Source: a virus
Taxonomy: Duplodnaviria > Heunggongvirae > Uroviricota > Caudoviricetes
IMG/VR virus record: IMGVR_UViG_2585427710_000015
Length of the DNA: 8,949 bases
Reading direction: 5' to 3' (one strand)
The notes beneath the pieces were generated by a model that was not told where the DNA came from, did no database searches, and saw only the letters and a program-made list of their open reading frames with translations. The stretch's first letter is position 1. Each line of letters begins with the position of its first letter. The position numbers were made by a program, and so were the translations under genes. Shown piece by piece: positions 1-8,949 of the stretch.

Positions 1-696
1 CAGGATATTCACGAAGCAAGCCTGAACGAGTCGGTTAAATCAGAGCAGTCACCGCGGGTGGTGCTCTGGGAAATCGACCTGACGGTGCAGGGCGGTGAGC
101 GGTATTTTTTCTGCAATGAGCTGAATGAAAAAGGGGAGCCGGTGACCTGGCAGGGGCGTGAATATCAGGCGTACCCGATTGAGGGGAGTGGCTTTGAGAT
201 GAACGGAAAGGGCAGCAGTGCCCGCCCGTCGCTGACGGTGTCCAATCTTTTCGGCCTTGTCACCGGGATGGCGGAGGATTTGCAGAGCCTGGTGGGGGCC
301 ACGGTGGTCCGTCGCCGGGTGTATGCGCGTTTTCTGGATGCGGTGAACTTTGTGGCAGGCAATCCTGAGGCAGACCCGGAGCAGGAGCTGAGAGACCGCT
401 GGGTGGTGGAGCAGATGTCAGAGCTGACGGCCATGACAGCCTCGTTTGTGCTGGCAACACCGACGGAGACGGACGGAGCGCTGTTTCCCGGTCGCATCAT
501 GCTGGCGAACACCTGTATGTGGGATTACCGGGGCGATGAATGCGGGTATAACGGTCCGGCAGTGGCGGATGAGTTCGACAACCCCACCACGGATATCCGG
601 AAGGACAGATGCAGTAAATGCATGCGCGGGTGTGAGATGCGCGGCATGGTGGCTAATTTTGGCGGTTTCCTTTCCATTAATAAACTTTCGCAGTAA
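1..696 (+). CDS. L: Tail tip assembly protein L (gpL-like), 5'-partial: the frame is open from base 1 and the true start lies upstream of the window
   Basis: Frame 1 is open from position 1 (QDIHEASLNESVKSEQSPRVVLWEIDLT...) to TAA at 694-696. Translation matches my recollection of lambda gpL along its length (VLWEIDLT..GERYFFCNE..NEKGEPVTWQGR..GRIMLANTC.W.YRGDECGY..FGGFLSINKLSQ). The C-terminal Cys cluster (C..C..CSKC..C) is present. Synteny L-K-I-J supports the call. Similarity is recalled, not computed. Confidence 0.9.
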   Translation, partial: QDIHEASLNESVKSEQSPRVVLWEIDLTVQGGERYFFCNELNEKGEPVTWQGREYQAYPIEGSGFEMNGKGSSARPSLTVSNLFGLVTGMAEDLQSLVGATVVRRRVYARFLDAVNFVAGNPEADPEQELRDRWVVEQMSELTAMTASFVLATPTETDGALFPGRIMLANTCMWDYRGDECGYNGPAVADEFDNPTTDIRKDRCSKCMRGCEMRGMVANFGGFLSINKLSQ

Positions 697-706
697 ATCC
701 CGTTTT

Positions 707-1450
707 ATGACACAGACTGAATCAGCGATTCTGGCGCATGCCCGGCGGTGTGCGCCTGCGGAGTCGTGCGGCTTCGTGGTGAGAACGCCGGAGGGGGAGC
801 GGTATCAGCCGTGTGTGAATATCTCTGCAGAGCCGGAGGCGTATTTTCGTATTGCACCGGAAGACTGGCTGCGGGCAGAGATGCAGGGGGAGATTGTGGC
901 ACTGGTCCACAGTCATCCCGGTGGTCTGCCCTGGCTGAGCGAGGCCGACCGGCGGCTGCAGATAAAAAGTGCACTGCCCTGGTGGCTGGTCTGCCGGGGG
1001 GAAATTCACAAATTCCGCTGTGTGCCGCACCTGACCGGACGGCGCTTTGAACACGGGGTGACGGACTGTTACACCCTGTTCCGGGATGCATACCATCTGG
1101 CGGGGATTGAGATGCCGGATTTTCACCGTGAGGATGACTGGTGGCGCAACGGTCAGAACCTGTACCTGGACAATATGGAGGCCACCGGCTTTTACCGGGT
1201 GTCCCTGTCCTCTGCACAGGCAGGCGATATCCTGCTGTGCTGCTTTGGCGCATCGGTGCCGAATCATGCCGCCATTTACTGTGGCAACGGTGAGCTGCTT
1301 CACCATATACCTGAACAACTGAGTAAACGGGAGAGGTATTCAGAGAAATGGCAACGACGAACGCATTCTGTCTGGCGTCACCGCCACTGGTCCGCATCTG
1401 CCTTCACGGGGATTTACAACGATTTGGTCGCCGCATCAGTCTGTATGTGA
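707..1450 (+). CDS. K: Tail tip assembly protein K (gpK-like) with MPN/JAMM and NlpC/P60 motifs
   Basis: ATG at 707 lies 10 nt after the L stop with no obvious SD, so translational coupling is possible. The ORF runs to 1450 (247 aa). A JAMM-type motif H-S-H-x7-S-x2-D (HSHPGGLPWLSEAD) and NlpC/P60-like Cys (DCYTLF) and His (NHAAIY) are visible. The 3' end overlaps I by 103 nt in another frame, as I recall for lambda K/I. The listed ORF beginning at 446 is the same frame running back into L; 707 is the first ATG after the L stop. An internal start (e.g. the ATG at 881) cannot be excluded. Confidence 0.88.
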   Translation: MTQTESAILAHARRCAPAESCGFVVRTPEGERYQPCVNISAEPEAYFRIAPEDWLRAEMQGEIVALVHSHPGGLPWLSEADRRLQIKSALPWWLVCRGEIHKFRCVPHLTGRRFEHGVTDCYTLFRDAYHLAGIEMPDFHREDDWWRNGQNLYLDNMEATGFYRVSLSSAQAGDILLCCFGASVPNHAAIYCGNGELLHHIPEQLSKRERYSEKWQRRTHSVWRHRHWSASAFTGIYNDLVAASVCM

Positions 1451-2028
1451 ACACGGCAGCGGAGGCCATCCGTGCCCTGTCGCAGCAGGTGCCGGGATTC
1501 CGCTGTCAGATGAACGAAGGCTGGTACCAGATACGTATTGCCGGTGAGGATACCGCGCCGGAGGCGGTGTATGCCCGTCTTCATGAACCGCTGAGCGGGA
1601 GGGCCGTGATTCATATTGTACCGAGGCTGGCAGGGGCCGGGGGAAATGGTGTTTTTCAGGTGGTGCTGGGGGTTGCAGCGATTGTCGGGTCATTTTTCAC
1701 TGGTGGTGCAACACTGGCGGCATGGGGCGCAGCCCTGAGTGCCGGAGGGCTGACTGCCACCACGATGCTGTTCTCACTGGGTGCCAGCATGATACTGGGT
1801 GGTGTGGCTCAGATGCTGGCCCCGAAGGCAACGACGCCGGAGTATAAAAGCACGGATAACGGCAGACAGAACACGTATTTTTCGTCACTGGATAACATGA
1901 TTGCCCAGGGGAACCCGATGCCGGTGCCTTACGGTGAAATGCTGGTTGGTTCACGACGGATATCCCAGGACATCAGCACCCGTGATGAGGGCGGAGACGG
2001 GAAAGTGGTGGTTATCGGACGGGGATAA
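1348..2028 (+). CDS. I: Tail tip assembly protein I (gpI-like)
   Basis: 226-aa ORF. The motifs RICL.GDLQRFGRRI, AVIHIVPR.AGA and the Gly/Ala-rich hydrophobic stretch (GSFFTGGATLAAWGAA..GG.T) plus the C-terminal NTYFSSLDNM.AQGN..PV.YGEM.VGSR..SQ.IST.DEG match recalled lambda gpI. The start overlaps the K 3' end by 103 nt. Confidence 0.9.
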   Translation: MATTNAFCLASPPLVRICLHGDLQRFGRRISLYVNTAAEAIRALSQQVPGFRCQMNEGWYQIRIAGEDTAPEAVYARLHEPLSGRAVIHIVPRLAGAGGNGVFQVVLGVAAIVGSFFTGGATLAAWGAALSAGGLTATTMLFSLGASMILGGVAQMLAPKATTPEYKSTDNGRQNTYFSSLDNMIAQGNPMPVPYGEMLVGSRRISQDISTRDEGGDGKVVVIGRG

Positions 2029-2066
2029 AAATAAAAAAATCCCGCAGAGTTAGCGGAGCTGCGGGA
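2029..2066 (-). terminator. Intrinsic (rho-independent) terminator for leftward transcription, placed immediately right of the I stop codon
   Basis: Read on the minus strand: UCCCGCAG-cuccgcuaacu-CUGCGGGA followed by UUUUUUUAUUUUUAU. The stem is 8 bp and GC-rich (+ coords 2040-2047 pairing with 2059-2066), the loop 11 nt, and the U-tract is the complement of + 2029-2039. On the + strand the same hairpin is followed by AGAGAUACG with no U-run, so it terminates only leftward transcripts. Confidence 0.7.
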
Positions 2067-2127
2067 AGAGATACGAAGATTAACTGTAAGGAGTTATTAT
2101 TATGTCACAGCAAAAAAACGGTAACGC
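2029..2127 (-). ncRNA. Candidate ~95-100 nt small RNA, transcribed leftward from the promoter at 2134-2161 and ending at the terminator at 2029-2066
   Basis: A near-consensus sigma70 promoter and an intrinsic terminator on the same (minus) strand bracket about 95 nt with no plausible ORF. Predicted RNA, 5' end approximate: cugcguuaccguuuuuuugcugugacauaauaauaacuccuuacaguuaaucuucguaucucuucccgcagcuccgcuaacucugcgggauuuuuuuauuuuuau. The TSS is predicted and the RNA is hypothetical until detected. Confidence 0.4.
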
Positions 2128-2140
2128 AGAGAAATTATAA
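2102..2140 (+). CDS. Tiny ORF (12 codons, MSQQKNGNAEKL) with a strong Shine-Dalgarno; possibly a leader peptide or a remnant translation start, and possibly not expressed
   Basis: TAAGGAG at 2087-2093 is followed after 8 nt by ATG at 2102, and the ORF ends at TAA 2138-2140. The SD and the whole ORF are fully complementary to the candidate minus-strand RNA. The peptide is short and hydrophilic and does not look like a type I toxin. Confidence 0.15.
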   Translation: MSQQKNGNAEKL

Positions 2141-2161
2141 GCGCCACTGGGATTTTGTGAA
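2134..2161 (-). promoter_or_regulatory. Sigma70-like promoter on the minus strand: -35 TTCACA, 16-bp spacer, -10 TATAAT
   Basis: On the minus strand, -35 TTCACA is the reverse complement of + 2156-2161 (5/6 match to TTGACA). The 16-bp spacer is the complement of + 2140-2155. The -10 TATAAT is the complement of + 2134-2139 and is a perfect consensus hexamer. The upstream minus-strand sequence, which is the 27-bp repeat, is AT-rich and could act as an UP-like element. Predicted TSS is near + coordinate 2127. Confidence 0.55.
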
Positions 2162-2187
2162 AATGTGAAGAATTTCAGAAATTTTAT
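2161..2187. repeat. Copy 1 of a perfect 27-bp direct repeat AAATGTGAAGAATTTCAGAAATTTTAT containing a CRP-box-like TGTGA-N6-TCAGA
   Basis: Identical 27-mers occur at 2161-2187 and 2340-2366. The flanking sequence 5' of each copy is similar but degenerate (cactgggattttg versus cacgggaatttg). The core resembles the CRP consensus AAATGTGA-N6-TCACATTT, with AAATGTGA exact and TCAGA versus TCACA. Confidence 0.8.
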
Positions 2188-2339
2188 GTTGCGGAGCTGA
2201 ACTAAAAAACGCTCCCGCAATACACCTGGATATTAACGGGAGGAACGAATAGTCACCTTAAGGAGTTGCGATTAATTGCTTTTATTGACCGCAGGTAATC
2301 TACCCATCCGGCAAGGTTTCCTCCACGGGAATTTGCCGG

Positions 2340-2366
2340 AAATGTGAAGAATTTCAGAAATTTTAT
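2340..2366. repeat. Copy 2 of the perfect 27-bp direct repeat (CRP-box-like TGTGA-N6-TCAGA)
   Basis: Identical to 2161-2187 and 179 bp downstream of it. It lies 12 nt upstream of the rightward terminator hairpin and 86 nt upstream of the J start codon. Confidence 0.8.
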
Positions 2367-2377
2367 TCCGTCATGAC

Positions 2378-2409
2378 ACAGGCACCCTCCGGGGTGCCTG
2401 TCGTTTTCT
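2378..2409 (+). terminator. Intrinsic terminator on the + strand, 43 nt upstream of the J start
   Basis: Perfect 10-bp inverted repeat ACAGGCACCC (2378-2387) / GGGTGCCTGT (2392-2401) with a 4-nt loop UCCG, followed by CGUUUUCUG. On the minus strand no U-run follows the hairpin. Confidence 0.6.
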
Positions 2410-2451
2410 GGCATAAACAGATTCAGACATCAGACAGGAGAGGGGGACAGA

Positions 2452-5400
2452 GTGGGTAAAGGGGGTGGCAAGGGGCACACACCGCGTGAGGCGAAGGACA
2501 ATCTCAAATCCACGCAGATGATGAGCGTGATTGATGCCATCGGTGAGGGACCGGTGGAAGGCCCGGTGAAGGGACTGCAGAGTATTCTGGTGAACAAAAC
2601 CCCGCTGACGGACACGGACGGTAATCCCGTGATACACGGTGTGACCGCCGTCTGGCGTGCCGGGGAGCAGGAGCAGACACCGCCGGAAGGCTTTGAGTCC
2701 TCCGGTGCTGAAACCGCACTGGGCGTGGAAGTGACGAAGGCAAAGCCGGTGACGCGCACCATTACGTCCGCGAACATTGACCGCCTGCGGGTCACCTTCG
2801 GGGTGCAGTCACTGTTGGAGACCACCTCAAAGGGCGACCGTAATCCCTCTTCTGTCCGACTGCTGATTCAGTTGCAGCGTAACGGTAACTGGGTGACGGA
2901 AAAGGATGTCACCATTAACGGCAAGACCACCTCACAGTACCTGGCGTCGGTGATTCTGGAGAATCTGCCTGAGCGGCCCTTTAACATCCGGATGGTCCGG
3001 GAGACGGCGGACAGCACCACGGACCAGCTGCAGAATAAGACGCTCTGGTCGTCATACACCGAAATCATCGATGTGAAACAGTGCTACCCGAACACGGCCA
3101 TTGTGGGGCTGCAGGTGGATGCGGAGCAGTTCGGCGGCCAGCAGATGACGGTGAACTACCATATCCGCGGTCGCATCATCCAGGTGCCGTCAAACTATGA
3201 CCCGGAAAAACGCACCTACAGCGGTATCTGGGACGGCAGCCTGAAACCGGCATACAGCAATAACCCGGCCTGGTGCCTGTGGGACATGCTGACTCACCCG
3301 CGCTACGGGATGGGAAAACGCCTGGGGGCCGCGGATGTGGACAAGTGGGCGCTGTATGCCATCGGGCAGTACTGCGACCAGACGGTCCCGGATGGTTTCG
3401 GGGGCACAGAGCCGCGGATGACCTTTAATGCGTACCTGTCACAGCAGCGTAAGGTGTGGGATGTCCTGGGGGATTTCTGCTCGGCGATGCGCTGTATGCC
3501 GGTATGGAACGGTCAGACGCTGACGTTCGTTCAGGACCGTCCGTCGGATGTGGTGTGGCCGTACACGAACAGCGATGTGGTGGTGGATGATAACGGCGTG
3601 GGGTTCCGCTACAGCTTCAGCGCCCTGAAGGACCGCCACACGGCGGTGGAGGTGAATTACACCGACCCGCAGAACGGCTGGCAGACCTCCACGGAACTGG
3701 TGGAAGACCCGGAAGCCATACTGCGCTACGGGCGCAACCTGCTGAAGATGGATGCGTTCGGCTGTACCAGCCGCGGTCAGGCCCACCGTGCCGGACTGTG
3801 GGTGATAAAGACAGAACTGCTGGAAACGCAGACGGTGGATTTCACGCTCGGGTCTCAGGGGCTGCGGCACACACCCGGTGACATCATTGAAATCTGTGAT
3901 AACGACTATGCCGGGACCCTGACCGGCGGACGCATCCTGTCCATCGATGCCGCCAGCCGCACACTGACGCTGGACCGTGAGGTGACACTGCCGGAAGCAG
4001 GTACATCGACGGTGAACCTGATTAACGGCCGTGGTAAGCCGGTGCGCGTGGACATCACTGCACAACCCGCCCCGGACCGGATACAGGTCAGCACCCTGCC
4101 TGATGGTGTGGAGACATACGGTGTATGGGGACTCTCCCTGCCGTCACTGCGTCGTCGCCTGTTCCGCTGTGTCTCCATCCGGGAAAACACGGACGGCACC
4201 TTTGCCATCACGGCGGTGCAGCACGTACCGGAAAAAGAAGCCATCGTGGATAACGGGGCCCGCTTTGAGCCGATGTCCGGCTCACTGAACAGCGTCATCC
4301 CGCCGGCGGTGCAGCACCTCACGGTGGAGGTGAGTGCCTCAGACGGCCAGTATCTGGCGCTGGCGAAATGGGACACGCCGCGGGTGGTGAAGGGTGTGCG
4401 CTTCAGTCTGCGCCTGACCAGCGGAAGCGGTGAAAACAGCCGTCTGGTGACCAGCGCCATCACTGCCGACACGGAGCACCGTTTCAGTGGCCTGCCGCCC
4501 GGGGAATACACCCTGACGGTCAGGGCGATAAACAGCTACGGCCAGCAGGGCGAACCTGCCACCACCACGTTCCGGATTAACGCACCGGCAGCACCGGCCA
4601 GCATTGAACTGACGCCGGGGTATTATCAGATAACGGCGGTCCCGCATCTTACGGTGTATGACCCGACGGTACAATTTGAGTTCTGGTTTTCGGAGGCAAA
4701 AGTCGCAGACACCGCACAGGTGGAAACGTCCGGCCGTTATCTGGGTACCGGCAGCCAGTGGAGTGTCTCCGGCCCGCACATTAAGCCCGGGAAGGATTTC
4801 TGGTTTTATGTGCGCAGCGTCAACCTGGTGGGGAAATCTGCGTTTGTGGAGGCCAGCGGGCAGGCCAGCAATGATGGTGAAGGGTATCTGGAAATTTTCC
4901 GTGGGCTGATAGATGAGGCGCTGCTGGGGAAGGCACTGAAAGAGCGTATTGATGCGTCAGCCCTGCGTACTGAGGTCACGCAACTGGAAGAAGACATCCG
5001 CCAGCGGCTGGAGACGGATGTTGCGGAAGTGACCCGAAAAATCGGGGAGGCGGAAAACAGCCTCACGCAGCTGGTTGCGAAAAAGAATGAGGACCAGACG
5101 CTGGCCATCGCGCAGGTGAGTCAGCAGGTGGACCGGGTGAGCAGTGAAATCACACAGACAGTCAGCCAGAGCACGGAGGAAAACGCCAGGCAGATAGCGC
5201 AGGTCCGCCAGTACGTGGATGACAAAGGGAGTGAAATCACCTCGACCACGGATAAAAAGCTGGAAGACCAGAGCGCGACCATACAGCAGATACAGCAGGT
5301 CCAGTCAGACACGAATGATGAGCTGGCAGCGCTGTACATGCTGAAGGTGCAGAAAACGAAAAACGGCATTCCGTATGTTGCCGGTATTGGTGCGGGGATT

Positions 5401-6147
5401 GAGGATGCTGATGGCCAGACGCTGAGCAATATTCTGCTGCAGGCGGACCGTATCGCGATGATTACCCCGGAGAACGGCAACACCACGCCGCTATTTGTGG
5501 CGCAGGGGAATCAGTTGTTCATGAACGATGTGTTCCTGAAGCGGCTGTTTGCGGTGAGTATCACCTCGTCCGGCAATCCCCCGACGTTTTCCCTGACGCC
5601 GGAGGGCAGGCTGACGGCCCGCAATGCGGACATCAGCGGACATATCAGTGCGAACTCGGGCACGCTCAATAATGTTGTGATAGCGGAGAACTGTACGATA
5701 AATGGCACGCTGAAAGCGGGAAACATCATCGGGGATCTTATCAAGGGCGGGAGTGGCGCTTTCCCGCGTCAGAATGAGGGCAGTGTGAACTGGCCTTCCG
5801 GAACGCGCACGTTCACTGTGTATGATGATCACCCGTTTGACCGCCAGATAGTGGTACTTCCGCTGACATTTCGCGGAAGCAGGCGTACCGACAGCGGCAG
5901 AACAACATATTCGATGTGTTATCTGAAGGTGCTGATGAACGGTGCAGTGATTTATGACGGCGTGGCGAATGATGCACCTCAGGTTTTCGCCCGAATTGTG
6001 GATATGCGTGCGGGAGGTGGACACGTAACCCTGACATTCACGGTCACGTCCACACGGCATTCGGGAAATATTCCGCCGGATACGTTTGCCAGTGATGTAC
6101 AGGTTCTTGTGATGAAAAAGGGGGCATCAGGTATCAGTATCAGCTGA
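2452..6147 (+). CDS. J: Central tail fibre / host specificity protein J (gpJ-like), 1231 aa
   Basis: GTG start at 2452, preceded by AGGAG at 2436-2440 and a G-rich stretch. The N-terminus [22 protein letters not shown] and the protein throughout are collinear with recalled lambda gpJ (1132 aa). The C-terminus (...[21 protein letters not shown]) is also lambda-like. There is about 100 aa of extra heptad-like sequence around residues 809-980 relative to lambda. Confidence 0.95.
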
Positions 6148-6990: not shown

Positions 6991-8949
6991 ATGACGGTTA
7001 AAATTTCTGGTGTGCTGAAGGACGGGGCCGGTAAGCCGGTACCGGGATGCACGATAGAGCTGAAAGCGCGACGCACAACGGAGACGGTGATTGTCACCAC
7101 GGTGGCGTATGGTCAGCCGGGGGAAACCGGCAGTTACAGTATGGATGTTGAGCCGGGGTTGTACCGGGTGACGCTGAACACGGAAGGGTACGCGCCGTCA
7201 TATGTGGGTGACATTCTGGTGAAGGCGGACTCTGCACCGGGAACGCTGAATAAATTTCTGATGGACCTGGAGGACGCACAGTATTACCCGAAAGCCCTTG
7301 CAGAGCTGGAAGCGGTGGCCGCGGAAATCCTGAAACGTGCGGAAGCGTCAGCGGCGAGTGCAGAGGAAGCGAAGAAACGGGCAGAGAATGCGCGGGGACC
7401 GAAGGGGGATAAGGGAGACACCGGGCCACAGGGTATTCCCGGGCCAAAAGGCGATACCGGCGAGCGGGGGCCAAAGGGTGAGCGTGGTGAGAGGGGGCCG
7501 CAGGGGCTTCAGGGTGTGAAAGGTGAACGGGGAGAGAAGGGCGAAAAAGGCGAGCCGGGAGGACCGGATGCGACGACGGCACAGAAGGGAATTGTGCAGT
7601 TAAGCAGCGCAACGGACAGTGATGATGAAACGAAGGCAGCCACCCCGAAAGCGGTGAAAGCGGCAATGGACAAAGCGGACGGATGCCTGGAGAAAGCGAA
7701 AAACGGTGACGATATCCCGGATAAGGTGCAGTTTCTGAACACTGTGGGAGCAGCCAGAGTATACGGGCGGGACATTCATACGGGGGCCGGTGAATGGACC
7801 ACGAGCGAGTTTGTCGCCTGGCTGAAAGCCAAAGGGGCATTTGACCAGCCTTACTGGATGATGAAGGCATCACTGCATGCGGGATTCAATAAGGTCATCA
7901 CGGATGTCGGACCGGGAAAACTTAATCTGGGTGGCTGTGTCATTGAGGTGATGGGGAAGTATGAGGCAGCCATAGTCCGGGTCACCATTGGCGAATACGG
8001 TGCAACGGGGTTTATTAATGGCACGGTCTGTACCTGTACGGTTTACGGCGACACACAGTATTTCCACTGGCGGGTGGATTACAGCACAAAAAACAAACCG
8101 GATACGGTCAGCCAGCGGGATGCCAGCACGACGCAGAAAGGTGTGGTGCAGTTAAGCAGTGATACTGGCAGTAATGACGAAACAAAGGCAGCCACGCCGA
8201 AGGCCGTGAAGGCGGCAATGGATGTGGCAAATGAAGCGAAAACAAAGGCAGAAGAGGCTGCAGCAGGAGGTGGTGTTCCCGGTCCGAAAGGAGATAAAGG
8301 GGACACGGGGCCGGCAGGTCCGGCTGGGCCGAGGGGCCCTCAGGGACCAAAGGGGGATACTGGCGCTCCCGGGGCAAAAGGTGAGAAAGGAGCCACCGGC
8401 GCAACCGGGCCACAGGGAGCAAAAGGGGATAAAGGTGATCCCGGCCCTCAGGGACCAAAGGGGGATGCTGGCGCTCCCGGGGCAAAAGGTGAGAAAGGAG
8501 CCACCGGCGCAACCGGGCCACAGGGAGCAAAAGGGGATAAAGGTGATCCCGGCCCTCAGGGACCAAAGGGGGATACTGGCGCTCCTGGGGCAAAAGGTGA
8601 GAAAGGAGCCACCGGCGCAACCGGGCCACAGGGACCAAAAGGGGATAAAGGTGATCCCGGTCCCCGGGGGGCAACAGGCCCACAGGGACCAGCTGGCTCA
8701 CCGGCAGGTGGTTTGCATGCTGTTGGGGCATTTGTCTTTGCTCAGGCCAGTATAAGTAACAGTGAAAAATATGCCGCAGGTGCCGTGCTTGCGGGAAGTA
8801 AACTGAGAGAATGTAGCATTCAACTGGGCTCTCAGAAAGCAGCCACATTAACCGGTAATACACTGCCAGGAACATGGCGGGTCTGTAGTCCACTTCAGGT
8901 CAGTTCAATATATCCTTACTGTGTGGGGCTGTTTCAGCGTATATCGTGA
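6991..8949 (+). CDS. stf: Side tail fibre protein (Stf-like) with collagen-like Gly-X-Y repeat blocks, 652 aa; the stop codon is the last three bases of the window
   Basis: The N-terminus [28 protein letters not shown] matches recalled lambda Stf ([26 protein letters not shown]). Two copies of the lambda-Stf-like motif [26 protein letters not shown] occur at nt 7573-7677 and 8125-8223. Collagen-like G-X-Y blocks lie at about 7393-7567 and 8269-8710. TGA at 8947-8949 ends the ORF exactly at the window edge, so downstream context such as a tfa gene cannot be seen. Confidence 0.85.
8341..8664. repeat. Three near-identical tandem copies of a 108-bp unit (36 aa, [36 protein letters not shown]) inside the stf collagen-like block
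   Basis: Copies at 8341-8448, 8449-8556 and 8557-8664 differ at only a few positions (gatact/gatgct, ctccc/ctcct, ggagcaaaa/ggaccaaaa). Found by direct reading. Confidence 0.9.

Follow-up and report, generated by a model that had tools for sequence, protein, structure and literature searches.

How far can the length of a phage tail fibre change when part of its shaft is encoded by near-perfect tandem repeats, and by what steps? The question is raised by an 8,949-nt stretch of DNA (IMG/VR virus record IMGVR_UViG_2585427710_000015; referred to below as the window), which is the tail-tip end of a lambdoid Escherichia coli prophage and carries the genes L (a minor tail protein), K, I, J and lom, followed by a gene for a 652-aa fibre protein. 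Within the longer of two collagen-like regions of the fibre gene a 108-bp unit occurs three times. A first-pass annotation had proposed that this is a length-variable locus, generated by a recent, nearly error-free triplication. Having compared the window with 24 homologous genes (L001-L024) from complete E. coli genomes, we conclude that the array is very probably an in-frame coding minisatellite, located where the side tail fibre gene of the prophage encodes a distal collagen-like shaft.

The 108-bp array of the second collagen block

The two collagen-like regions are slightly narrower than originally described. The longer one (block 2), placed at 8269-8710 with about 47 Gly-X-Y triplets, comprises 48, and the shorter one (block 1), placed at 7393-7567, comprises 19; the corrected limits are given in Table 1. 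Tandem Repeats Finder located the array at 8335-8660, with a period of 108, 3.0 copies, 98% matches, no indels and a score of 631, and also reported a weak 36-bp sub-period (61% matches). Each 108-bp unit is composed of three diverged 36-bp sub-units, and the units themselves are 97-99% identical and arranged head to tail. In their alignment 105 of the 108 columns are invariant, the three exceptions being column 25 (A to G in unit 2, Thr to Ala), column 36 (C to T in unit 3, synonymous) and column 85 (G to C in unit 3, Ala to Pro), which confirms the description of an almost perfect threefold repeat.

The self-identity of the array at a lag of 108 nt was 214/218, compared with about 0.5 at other multiples of 9 nt (the background for collagen-coding DNA). 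When the 48 nine-base units of block 2 were permuted 5000 times, which preserves both the Gly-X-Y pattern and the composition, the best self-identity of the shuffled sequences at any lag was at most 0.671, against 0.796 observed for the whole block; none of the 5000 permutations reached the observed value. The same lag analysis revealed no comparable periodicity in block 1. An exact-match scan with a 38-nt core of the unit, performed against one representative genome per bacterial species, gave no match, which shows only that the unit is unseen outside the E. coli and prophage material examined.

Length variation among homologous genes

The copy number of the unit is not invariant among the homologues. 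Block 2 occurs in 15 length classes (36, 37, 41, 42, 43, 45, 47, 48, 49, 51, 52, 55, 57, 60 and 72 triplets), with two to five 108-bp units, and the prediction of a length-variable locus is thereby upheld. Four of the 24 genomes carry 36 triplets, two carry 43, five carry 48 and two carry 52; each of the other lengths was found once. Seven more genomes match an 850-bp query (8100-8949) over exactly 850 bp, which implies 48 triplets in each of them. All length differences reside in block 2: the 1281 nt to its left, to which block 1 belongs, and the 246 nt to its right are constant in length, apart from L024, which is shortened by IS66. With a head-to-tail unit of at least 10 bp and a copy number that is polymorphic between strains, the array has the defining properties of a coding minisatellite (variable number tandem repeat).

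A map of block 2 by nine-base units resolved a constant head of 7 triplets (6 of them deleted in L018), a variable core and a constant tail of 5 triplets. In the core, the number of whole 108-bp units is 2, 3, 4 or 5 (five in the assembly of JNE170426), a 9-bp run encoding GDK has 1, 2 or 5 copies, a 36-bp sub-unit may be missing, and a stretch of 216 bp may be duplicated. The last of these was recognised in L017, in which unit 2 equals unit 4 and unit 3 equals unit 5, indicating that two units were duplicated together. Variation by the 108-bp unit, as expected from the first-pass annotation, is therefore real, but it is not confined to this unit, since 9-bp, partial-unit and two-unit steps occur as well.

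Genes with no difference in the 1527 flanking nucleotides may nevertheless have unlike lengths. This was observed for L005 and L019 (52 triplets), L006 (49), L007 (37) and L022 (41), for L008 (48) versus L016 (60), and for L013 (51) versus L015 (47). L014 (45) and L023 (57), identical over 2 kb upstream, are exactly one unit apart (for this Hamming comparison only indel-free groups were used, the values running into hundreds where indels shift the register). Such pairs indicate that length changes in the core of 216-540 bp outpace substitutions in the several kilobases around it. Moreover, the two-unit state is found in two flank lineages, namely in L002, which is 3 nt from L008, and in L003 and L004, which are 2-4 nt from L005-L007 over both flanks.

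The prophage lineage inserted at the potB site provides a series of alleles with two units (88-3493), three units (P15-385 and JNE082640) and four units (FWSEC0008). The order of units is U1+U3 in 88-3493, U1 U2 U3 in P15-385, JNE082640 and the window allele, and U1 U2 U3' U3 in FWSEC0008. U3' is a hybrid, which combines the 5' markers of unit 3 with the 3' marker of unit 2, as expected when misaligned units undergo slippage or unequal exchange.

In E. coli, two routes lead to the rearrangement of repeats about 100 bp long: replication slippage, which does not need RecA, and unequal exchange, which does. At the fibre locus, misalignment in replication or unequal homologous exchange would add or remove whole 108-bp units, and misalignment of the shorter internal repeats (the 9-bp GDK repeat and the 36-bp sub-unit) would give the smaller steps. 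Slippage and RecA-dependent exchange are not separated by sequence alone, and either might be the molecular route. All steps are multiples of 9 bp and therefore disturb neither the reading frame nor the Gly-X-Y register, so that every variant encodes a fibre.

The near-identity of the three units, emphasised in the first-pass annotation, was confirmed, whereas their origin in a single recent event was not. The units differ at 1-3 of the 108 positions in the window, but at 3-7 in L010 and at 4-8 in L011, which are also three-unit alleles. No allele has fewer than two units, and in each of them the last unit is GPK-marked. Taken together, these observations indicate that the near-identity does not reflect one recent event. 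Most of the unit is also present, in a single copy and with 93-94% identity, in the fibre family of short-tailed Shiga toxin (Stx) phages, from which it follows that the array is an amplification of a segment that is single elsewhere. The near-identity seen in the window is better explained by an old array that keeps expanding, contracting and becoming homogenised than by one recent triplication.

Alternative explanations and predicted consequences

Several observations weigh against the interpretation of the array as a readily varying minisatellite of a working fibre gene. Near kin have the same alleles (as within the sets FORC_029/043/069 and UC4224/4315/4316), which implies that the locus is not hypermutable on the very short time-scale of an outbreak. 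Ten of the lengths (41, 42, 45, 47, 49, 51, 55, 57, 60 and 72 triplets) lack a second assembly. The phage collection contains no isolate with the full gene, the best phage record covering 67% of it, and some relatives reside in decaying prophages, with J frameshifted in L011, L020 and L022 and IS66 inserted in L021 and L024. A phase-variable contingency locus, in which repeat changes would frequently turn expression on and off through frameshifts or promoter spacing, was also considered, and rejected, as all steps are in-frame multiples of 9 bp and closely related isolates share alleles.

Could the length diversity result mainly from recombination between different fibre genes, several of which are carried by polylysogenic Shiga-toxin-producing E. 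coli (STEC), with the collagen block acting as a homologous linker for the exchange of modules? The same fibre gene is found at no fewer than four integration sites, behind unrelated upstream J regions, and up to 8-9 places per genome match parts of it. For Streptococcus thermophilus phages, it has been suggested that collagen-like repeats are hot spots of recombination (cited in PMC7242381; PMC5601072). In addition, a fibre family with a PCoil domain and three collagen blocks is 93-94% identical over the head and the first ~97 nt of the unit and diverges from there on, which places a past crossover inside the collagen block. This family, however, has the unit only once, so it is no direct donor of extra copies. 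Furthermore, alleles that agree completely in their flanks and in 2 kb of upstream sequence differ by whole or partial units only, with no foreign markers, and the hybrid unit of L016 is built solely from markers of its own lineage. We therefore regard exchange between fibre genes as an unlikely main source of the diversity.

According to a second alternative, defective prophages carry the gene as a decaying relic, and the repeat variation represents unconstrained drift in the absence of a working fibre. The frameshifts in J, the IS66 elements that truncate or flank the gene in two relatives, the missing phage isolate and the lack of a following tail fibre assembly (tfa) gene all fit such a scenario, and several carriers of the gene are, judging from these lesions, defective prophages. 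The fibre gene itself gives a different picture: its reading frame is intact in 23 of the 24 alleles, and polymorphism in the flanks comprises 36 synonymous and 20 non-synonymous changes, compared with a random expectation of 24% synonymous. Together with a C-terminal part of 81 aa that is invariant at the protein level, this bias argues for purifying selection on the gene. Preservation of the frame is by itself uninformative, all repeat steps being multiples of 9. Mere decay of the locus thus appears highly improbable.

The IS66-family elements deserve a separate remark. One of them, at 1-1158 of L021 (strain STEC434), replaces most of J, and the other, at 3716-5685 of L024 (STEC17-190), cuts the fibre gene after the residues KYAAGA.

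The weakest alternative is that the copies, and their differing numbers, are products of repeat collapse or expansion during assembly. The array (326 bp) does exceed the k-mers of assemblers, ten of the alleles were seen once only, and in a large protein collection the C-terminal domain is found mostly in “partial” proteins of 95-133 aa (P0001-P0003) from draft E. coli genomes, which suggests that the array is a common breakpoint of short-read assemblies. We nevertheless discount an artefact almost entirely, because three independent complete genomes (P15-385, 99-3311 and ML775) carry the 1959-bp gene without a single difference, an identical block is present in RM7190 and in the IMG/VR contig L029, the array is far below the length of long reads, five length classes recur in independent assemblies (48 triplets many times, 36 four times, 52 twice, 43 at least five times, and 37 in L007 as well as in the IMG/VR locus L033), and the alleles differ in a structured way (markers that track units, the hybrid unit, the GDK run), unlike random collapse.

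What might the minisatellite mean for the fibre? In PMC3368898, a collagen residue is given a length of 2.9 Å, and the 111-residue collagen domain of a related prophage fibre measured about 30 nm by electron microscopy. On this basis, each unit would add about 10.4 nm of predicted triple helix, and the distal rod would measure about 31, 42, 52 and 63 nm with two, three, four and five units, respectively (42 nm for the window allele). Both the formation of a triple helix and the physical change in length are predictions. Such a change would alter the reach of the C-terminal knob from the tail. It is conceivable, although on balance doubtful, that the length differences matter for host adsorption; near-neutral drift within a tolerated range is the more probable account. 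A bolder proposal is that the distal rod is a tunable spacer, in which steps of about 10 nm (unit) and about 0.9 nm (GDK) are selected so that the reach of the invariant knob fits how thick the O-antigen or capsule layer of the available hosts is, and in which the block also acts as a homologous linker for exchange of tips between co-resident prophages. The locus would then be an evolved evolvability device and not a passive minisatellite, which we consider rather improbable.

Side tail fibres set the speed of adsorption of temperate phages and their target cells, including those of phages which move virulence genes among STEC. The alleles with two to five units, associated with near-identical or identical flanking protein, form a natural series for relating fibre length to adsorption through O-antigen or capsule. 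The minisatellite is also of practical interest, as a locus which breaks or may collapse in short-read assemblies, as a possible typing marker for this prophage family, and in the engineering of lambdoid fibres.

Architecture, relatives and surroundings of the fibre gene

The fibre protein has the layout PfN - Col(19) - Pf2 - Mu-S'-like - Pf2 - Col(48) - knob (Table 1). Its first-pass identification as the product of stf is supported by the position of the gene after J and lom and by the homology of PfN to the collar domain of lambda Stf: residues 1-91 match chain Ta of PDB entry 9e7m (the Ur-lambda Stf collar domain; also 9mgh) with an E-value of 1.3e-28, and the identity of this chain as Stf is confirmed in PMC12617516. 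The PfN domain probably functions as a collar that attaches the fibre to the tail. The whole protein matches PHROG 366 (tail fiber; E 8e-130), and the RefSeq label of the gene, downstream of gpJ and lom and beside potB, is “prophage tail fiber N-terminal domain-containing protein”.

Table 1. Coordinates of the fibre gene, its domains and repeats, and the two preceding genes within the window
Feature	Position	Strand	Remarks
J	2452-6147		
lom	6177/6216-6839		
Side-tail-fibre (stf-position) gene	6991-8949	+	652 aa; from open reading frame list and translation; last prophage gene, no tfa after it
PfN domain (prophage tail fibre N-terminal)	6991-7392	+	Pfam PF08400, aa 1-134, 142 bits
Collagen block 1	7396-7566	+	19 Gly-X-Y triplets, aa 136-192; Pfam Collagen PF01391; no length change among the 24 homologues
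Pf2 (phage tail fibre repeat), copy 1	7566-7670	+	Pfam PF03406, aa 195-235; direct repeat D3
Mid-fibre globular domain	7663-8106	+	aa 225-372; homologous to variable part of Mu tail fibre S'
Pf2, copy 2	8118-8222	+	Pfam; direct repeat
Collagen block 2	8272-8703	+	48 uninterrupted Gly-X-Y triplets, aa 428-571
Constant head of block 2	8272-8334	+	7 triplets; in 23 of 24 homologues; one polymorphic triplet (GPR/GPG)
Repeat unit 1	8335-8442	+	108 bp, 36 aa
Repeat unit 2	8443-8550	+	GDA for GDT; missing from two-unit allele of same prophage lineage
Repeat unit 3	8551-8658	+	Synonymous C to T; GPK for GAK; GPK-marked terminal unit in all alleles
Constant tail of block 2	8659-8703	+	5 triplets; identical in 24 of 24 homologues
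C-terminal domain	8704-8946	+	81 aa, predicted all-beta

The collagen assignment is supported by a PF01391 score of 109 bits (cut-off 27.2) in 4 stretches, and a search of the PDB matched the block to collagens, among them BclA (1wck). Block 2 contains 14 [K/R]-G-[D/E] motifs, and the 108-bp unit is rich in Lys-Gly-Asp/Glu, a sequence whose ion pairs stabilise the hydroxyproline-free collagens of bacteria.

The mid-fibre domain was identified by a phmmer search of the PDB, in which it matched residues 175-324 of 8ju3_A (whole-sequence E 1.7e-44, domain i-E 2.6e-30); the region of the first Pf2 copy matches residues 111-178 of the Mu tail fibre S (5yvq). The two Pf2 repeats (105 nt each, 80% identical) bracket the Mu-S'-like domain, which looks like an insertion/deletion module bounded by direct repeats. 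The fibres of Stx phages match this stretch of the gene over only about 340 bp, hence without the Mu-S'-like cassette.

The C-terminal domain probably forms the distal knob, and may act as a trimerisation nucleus and/or a receptor-binding tip. Its protein sequence is the same in all 23 alleles with a complete C-terminus. Pfam gave no match for this domain or for the mid-fibre domain, even at E ≤ 10. A word-indexed protein search with the C-terminal domain retrieved four E. coli fragments only, and an exhaustive HMMER search of 1.84 billion cluster representatives retrieved five matches, two of which are the same protein. P0007 and P0008, on inspection of their sequences, were judged to be spurious matches, being long repetitive proteins with scores summed from many weak stretches. 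The sole genuine-looking relative is P0009, a stand-alone protein of 133 aa with 45% identity and the shared motifs AVG..FA, GTLPGTWR and L..RI. An AlphaFold2 model of the domain as a monomer, built from a 4-sequence alignment, has six strands and medium confidence (mean predicted local distance difference test score 67.5); a Foldseek comparison of the model with the PDB found no structural neighbour (best E 0.34), and no fold was assigned.

That collagen-like fibres of prophages are known was rightly stated in the first-pass annotation. Ghosh et al. 2012 (PLoS One 7:e37872; PMC3368898) defined the collagen-like proteins EPclA-D of enterohaemorrhagic E. coli prophages. EPclA was shown to be a dumbbell-shaped trimer with a triple helix, and Col domains of one architecture were reported to differ in length by multiples of three residues. 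Variable collagen-domain length in such fibres is thus already published and is not a new concept. What is added here is a cleanly resolved 108-bp minisatellite, with a two-to-five-unit allele series inside single prophage lineages; the text of Ghosh et al., as far as consulted, describes no 108-bp tandem unit and no allele series within one prophage lineage.

The fibre of the window combines a PF08400 N-terminus with Col in a lambdoid prophage tail module, as in EPcl proteins. It shares with them (most closely with the EPclC type) PfN, one or two (Gly-X-Y)n regions, Pf2, the family-typical GPQ-GPK-GD triplet pattern and the nature of a side tail fibre of pathogenic E. coli lambdoid prophages. 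EPclA and EPclB differ in having PfC (PF06820) and a PCoil of ~109-116 aa; in the window PF06820 is not detected on the C-terminal 84 aa (E ≤ 10) and Col1 follows directly after PfN (aa 136). The features of EPclC (two Col, Pf2, no PCoil and a non-PfC C-terminus) are all present, although this class is defined by a figure and the Mu-S'-like cassette may fall outside the definition. P-EibA ORF-401, an example of EPclC, matches only the first 444 nt of the fibre gene. The Mu-S'-like domain between two Pf2 repeats and the orphan 81-aa C-terminus distinguish the fibre from EPcl. The architecture with the Mu-S'-like cassette, the orphan C-terminal knob and no tfa is not among the published descriptions compared.

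In phage lambda a tfa gene is located downstream of stf. The fibre gene resembles the stf of Ur-lambda in its position after J and lom, in the homologous collar domain and in the presence of Pf2 repeats, and presumably also in its role as an accessory fibre that speeds adsorption (PMC12617516). The shaft of lambda Stf, however, is coiled-coil/gp37-like, with a receptor-binding tip similar to that of T4 gp37, whereas the fibre analysed here has a collagen-like shaft, an unrelated tip and no accompanying tfa.

The fibres of short-tailed Stx phages (Sp5 ORF67/ECs1228, 933W L0121 and phi24B gp61; EPclB type) share the collagen-like shaft, Pf2 and a small C-terminal globular domain, but have a PCoil N-terminal region, another C-terminal domain and no Mu-S'-like cassette, and their unit is not tandemly amplified. 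Sp5 ORF67 was located at the tail end by immuno-electron microscopy; its deletion abolishes plaques and lysogenisation, and complementation restores lysogenisation (PMC5155283). For phi24B gp61, a flexible collagen-like shaft and a small C-terminal domain have been described (bioRxiv 10.64898/2026.04.10.717836). The PCoil family was represented in our material by the IMG/VR loci L025-L028, L030, L031 and L034-L036. Its C-terminal domain starts with TELLTTANTWTQAQ, and the length of its last collagen block varies as well (45, 47 or 52 triplets).

In-frame Gly-X-Y repeats with a strain-variable copy number are also found in bacterial surface collagens (Bacillus anthracis BclA, Streptococcus pyogenes Scl1/2, Legionella Lcl), in which the copy number sets the length of a trimeric stalk. 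These are cellular surface proteins, with mostly shorter units and no homology to the fibre beyond the collagen motif (for intragenic tandem repeats of Legionella see PMC2639597). Repeat-mediated in-frame deletion in a collagen-like attachment protein links the fibre with two unrelated groups of viruses. In ORF8 of the Guarani/Sputnik virophages, Guarani lost 81 nt across 27-nt repeats, and this loss went along with a wider host range (PMC7242381), and in the antireceptor of S. thermophilus phages domains are separated by collagen-like repeats (PMC5601072). Their units are much shorter and a functional consequence has been demonstrated, whereas the variation described here is known from sequence data.

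The whole window is at most 99.0% identical to any genome in the collection, and the fibre reading frame stops at its final base. The continuation is seen in P15-385, in which the fibre gene closes the series of prophage genes; next come a YkgJ-family gene, on the opposite strand, and potB, and the annotation of P15-385 contains no tfa gene after the fibre gene. The YkgJ-family cysteine-cluster gene (WP_022581964.1; 11227-11556 of L001, opposite strand) occupies the equivalent position in L002, L008, L010, L012, L013, L015-L018, L020 and L021. It follows the fibre gene at different integration sites (potB, tRNA-Ser/hyaA) and seems to be prophage cargo and not a chromosomal gene.

A 261-aa antisense open reading frame on the minus strand (8108-8893), which spans the whole collagen block, was dismissed as a by-product of stop-poor GGN-rich coding, on the basis of the open reading frame list and with no further search for evidence of a gene. 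Chi sites (GCTGGTGG) are absent from the window (0.6 expected), and a scan with Rfam at gathering thresholds gave no match.

The intergenic region between I and J (2029-2451) contains a 12-codon open reading frame at 2103-2141 with an AAGGAG ribosome-binding site, and apparent hairpin/T-run terminator motifs, judged by eye, near 2026-2066 and 2379-2409. It also includes two diverged tandem copies of an element of ~179 bp (2144-2187 versus 2323-2366, 86% identity; 2068-2102 versus 2240-2274, 71%). P15-385 has one copy, visible as a 179-nt gap in the alignment with the window, and the element is a second copy-number-variable repeat within the window.

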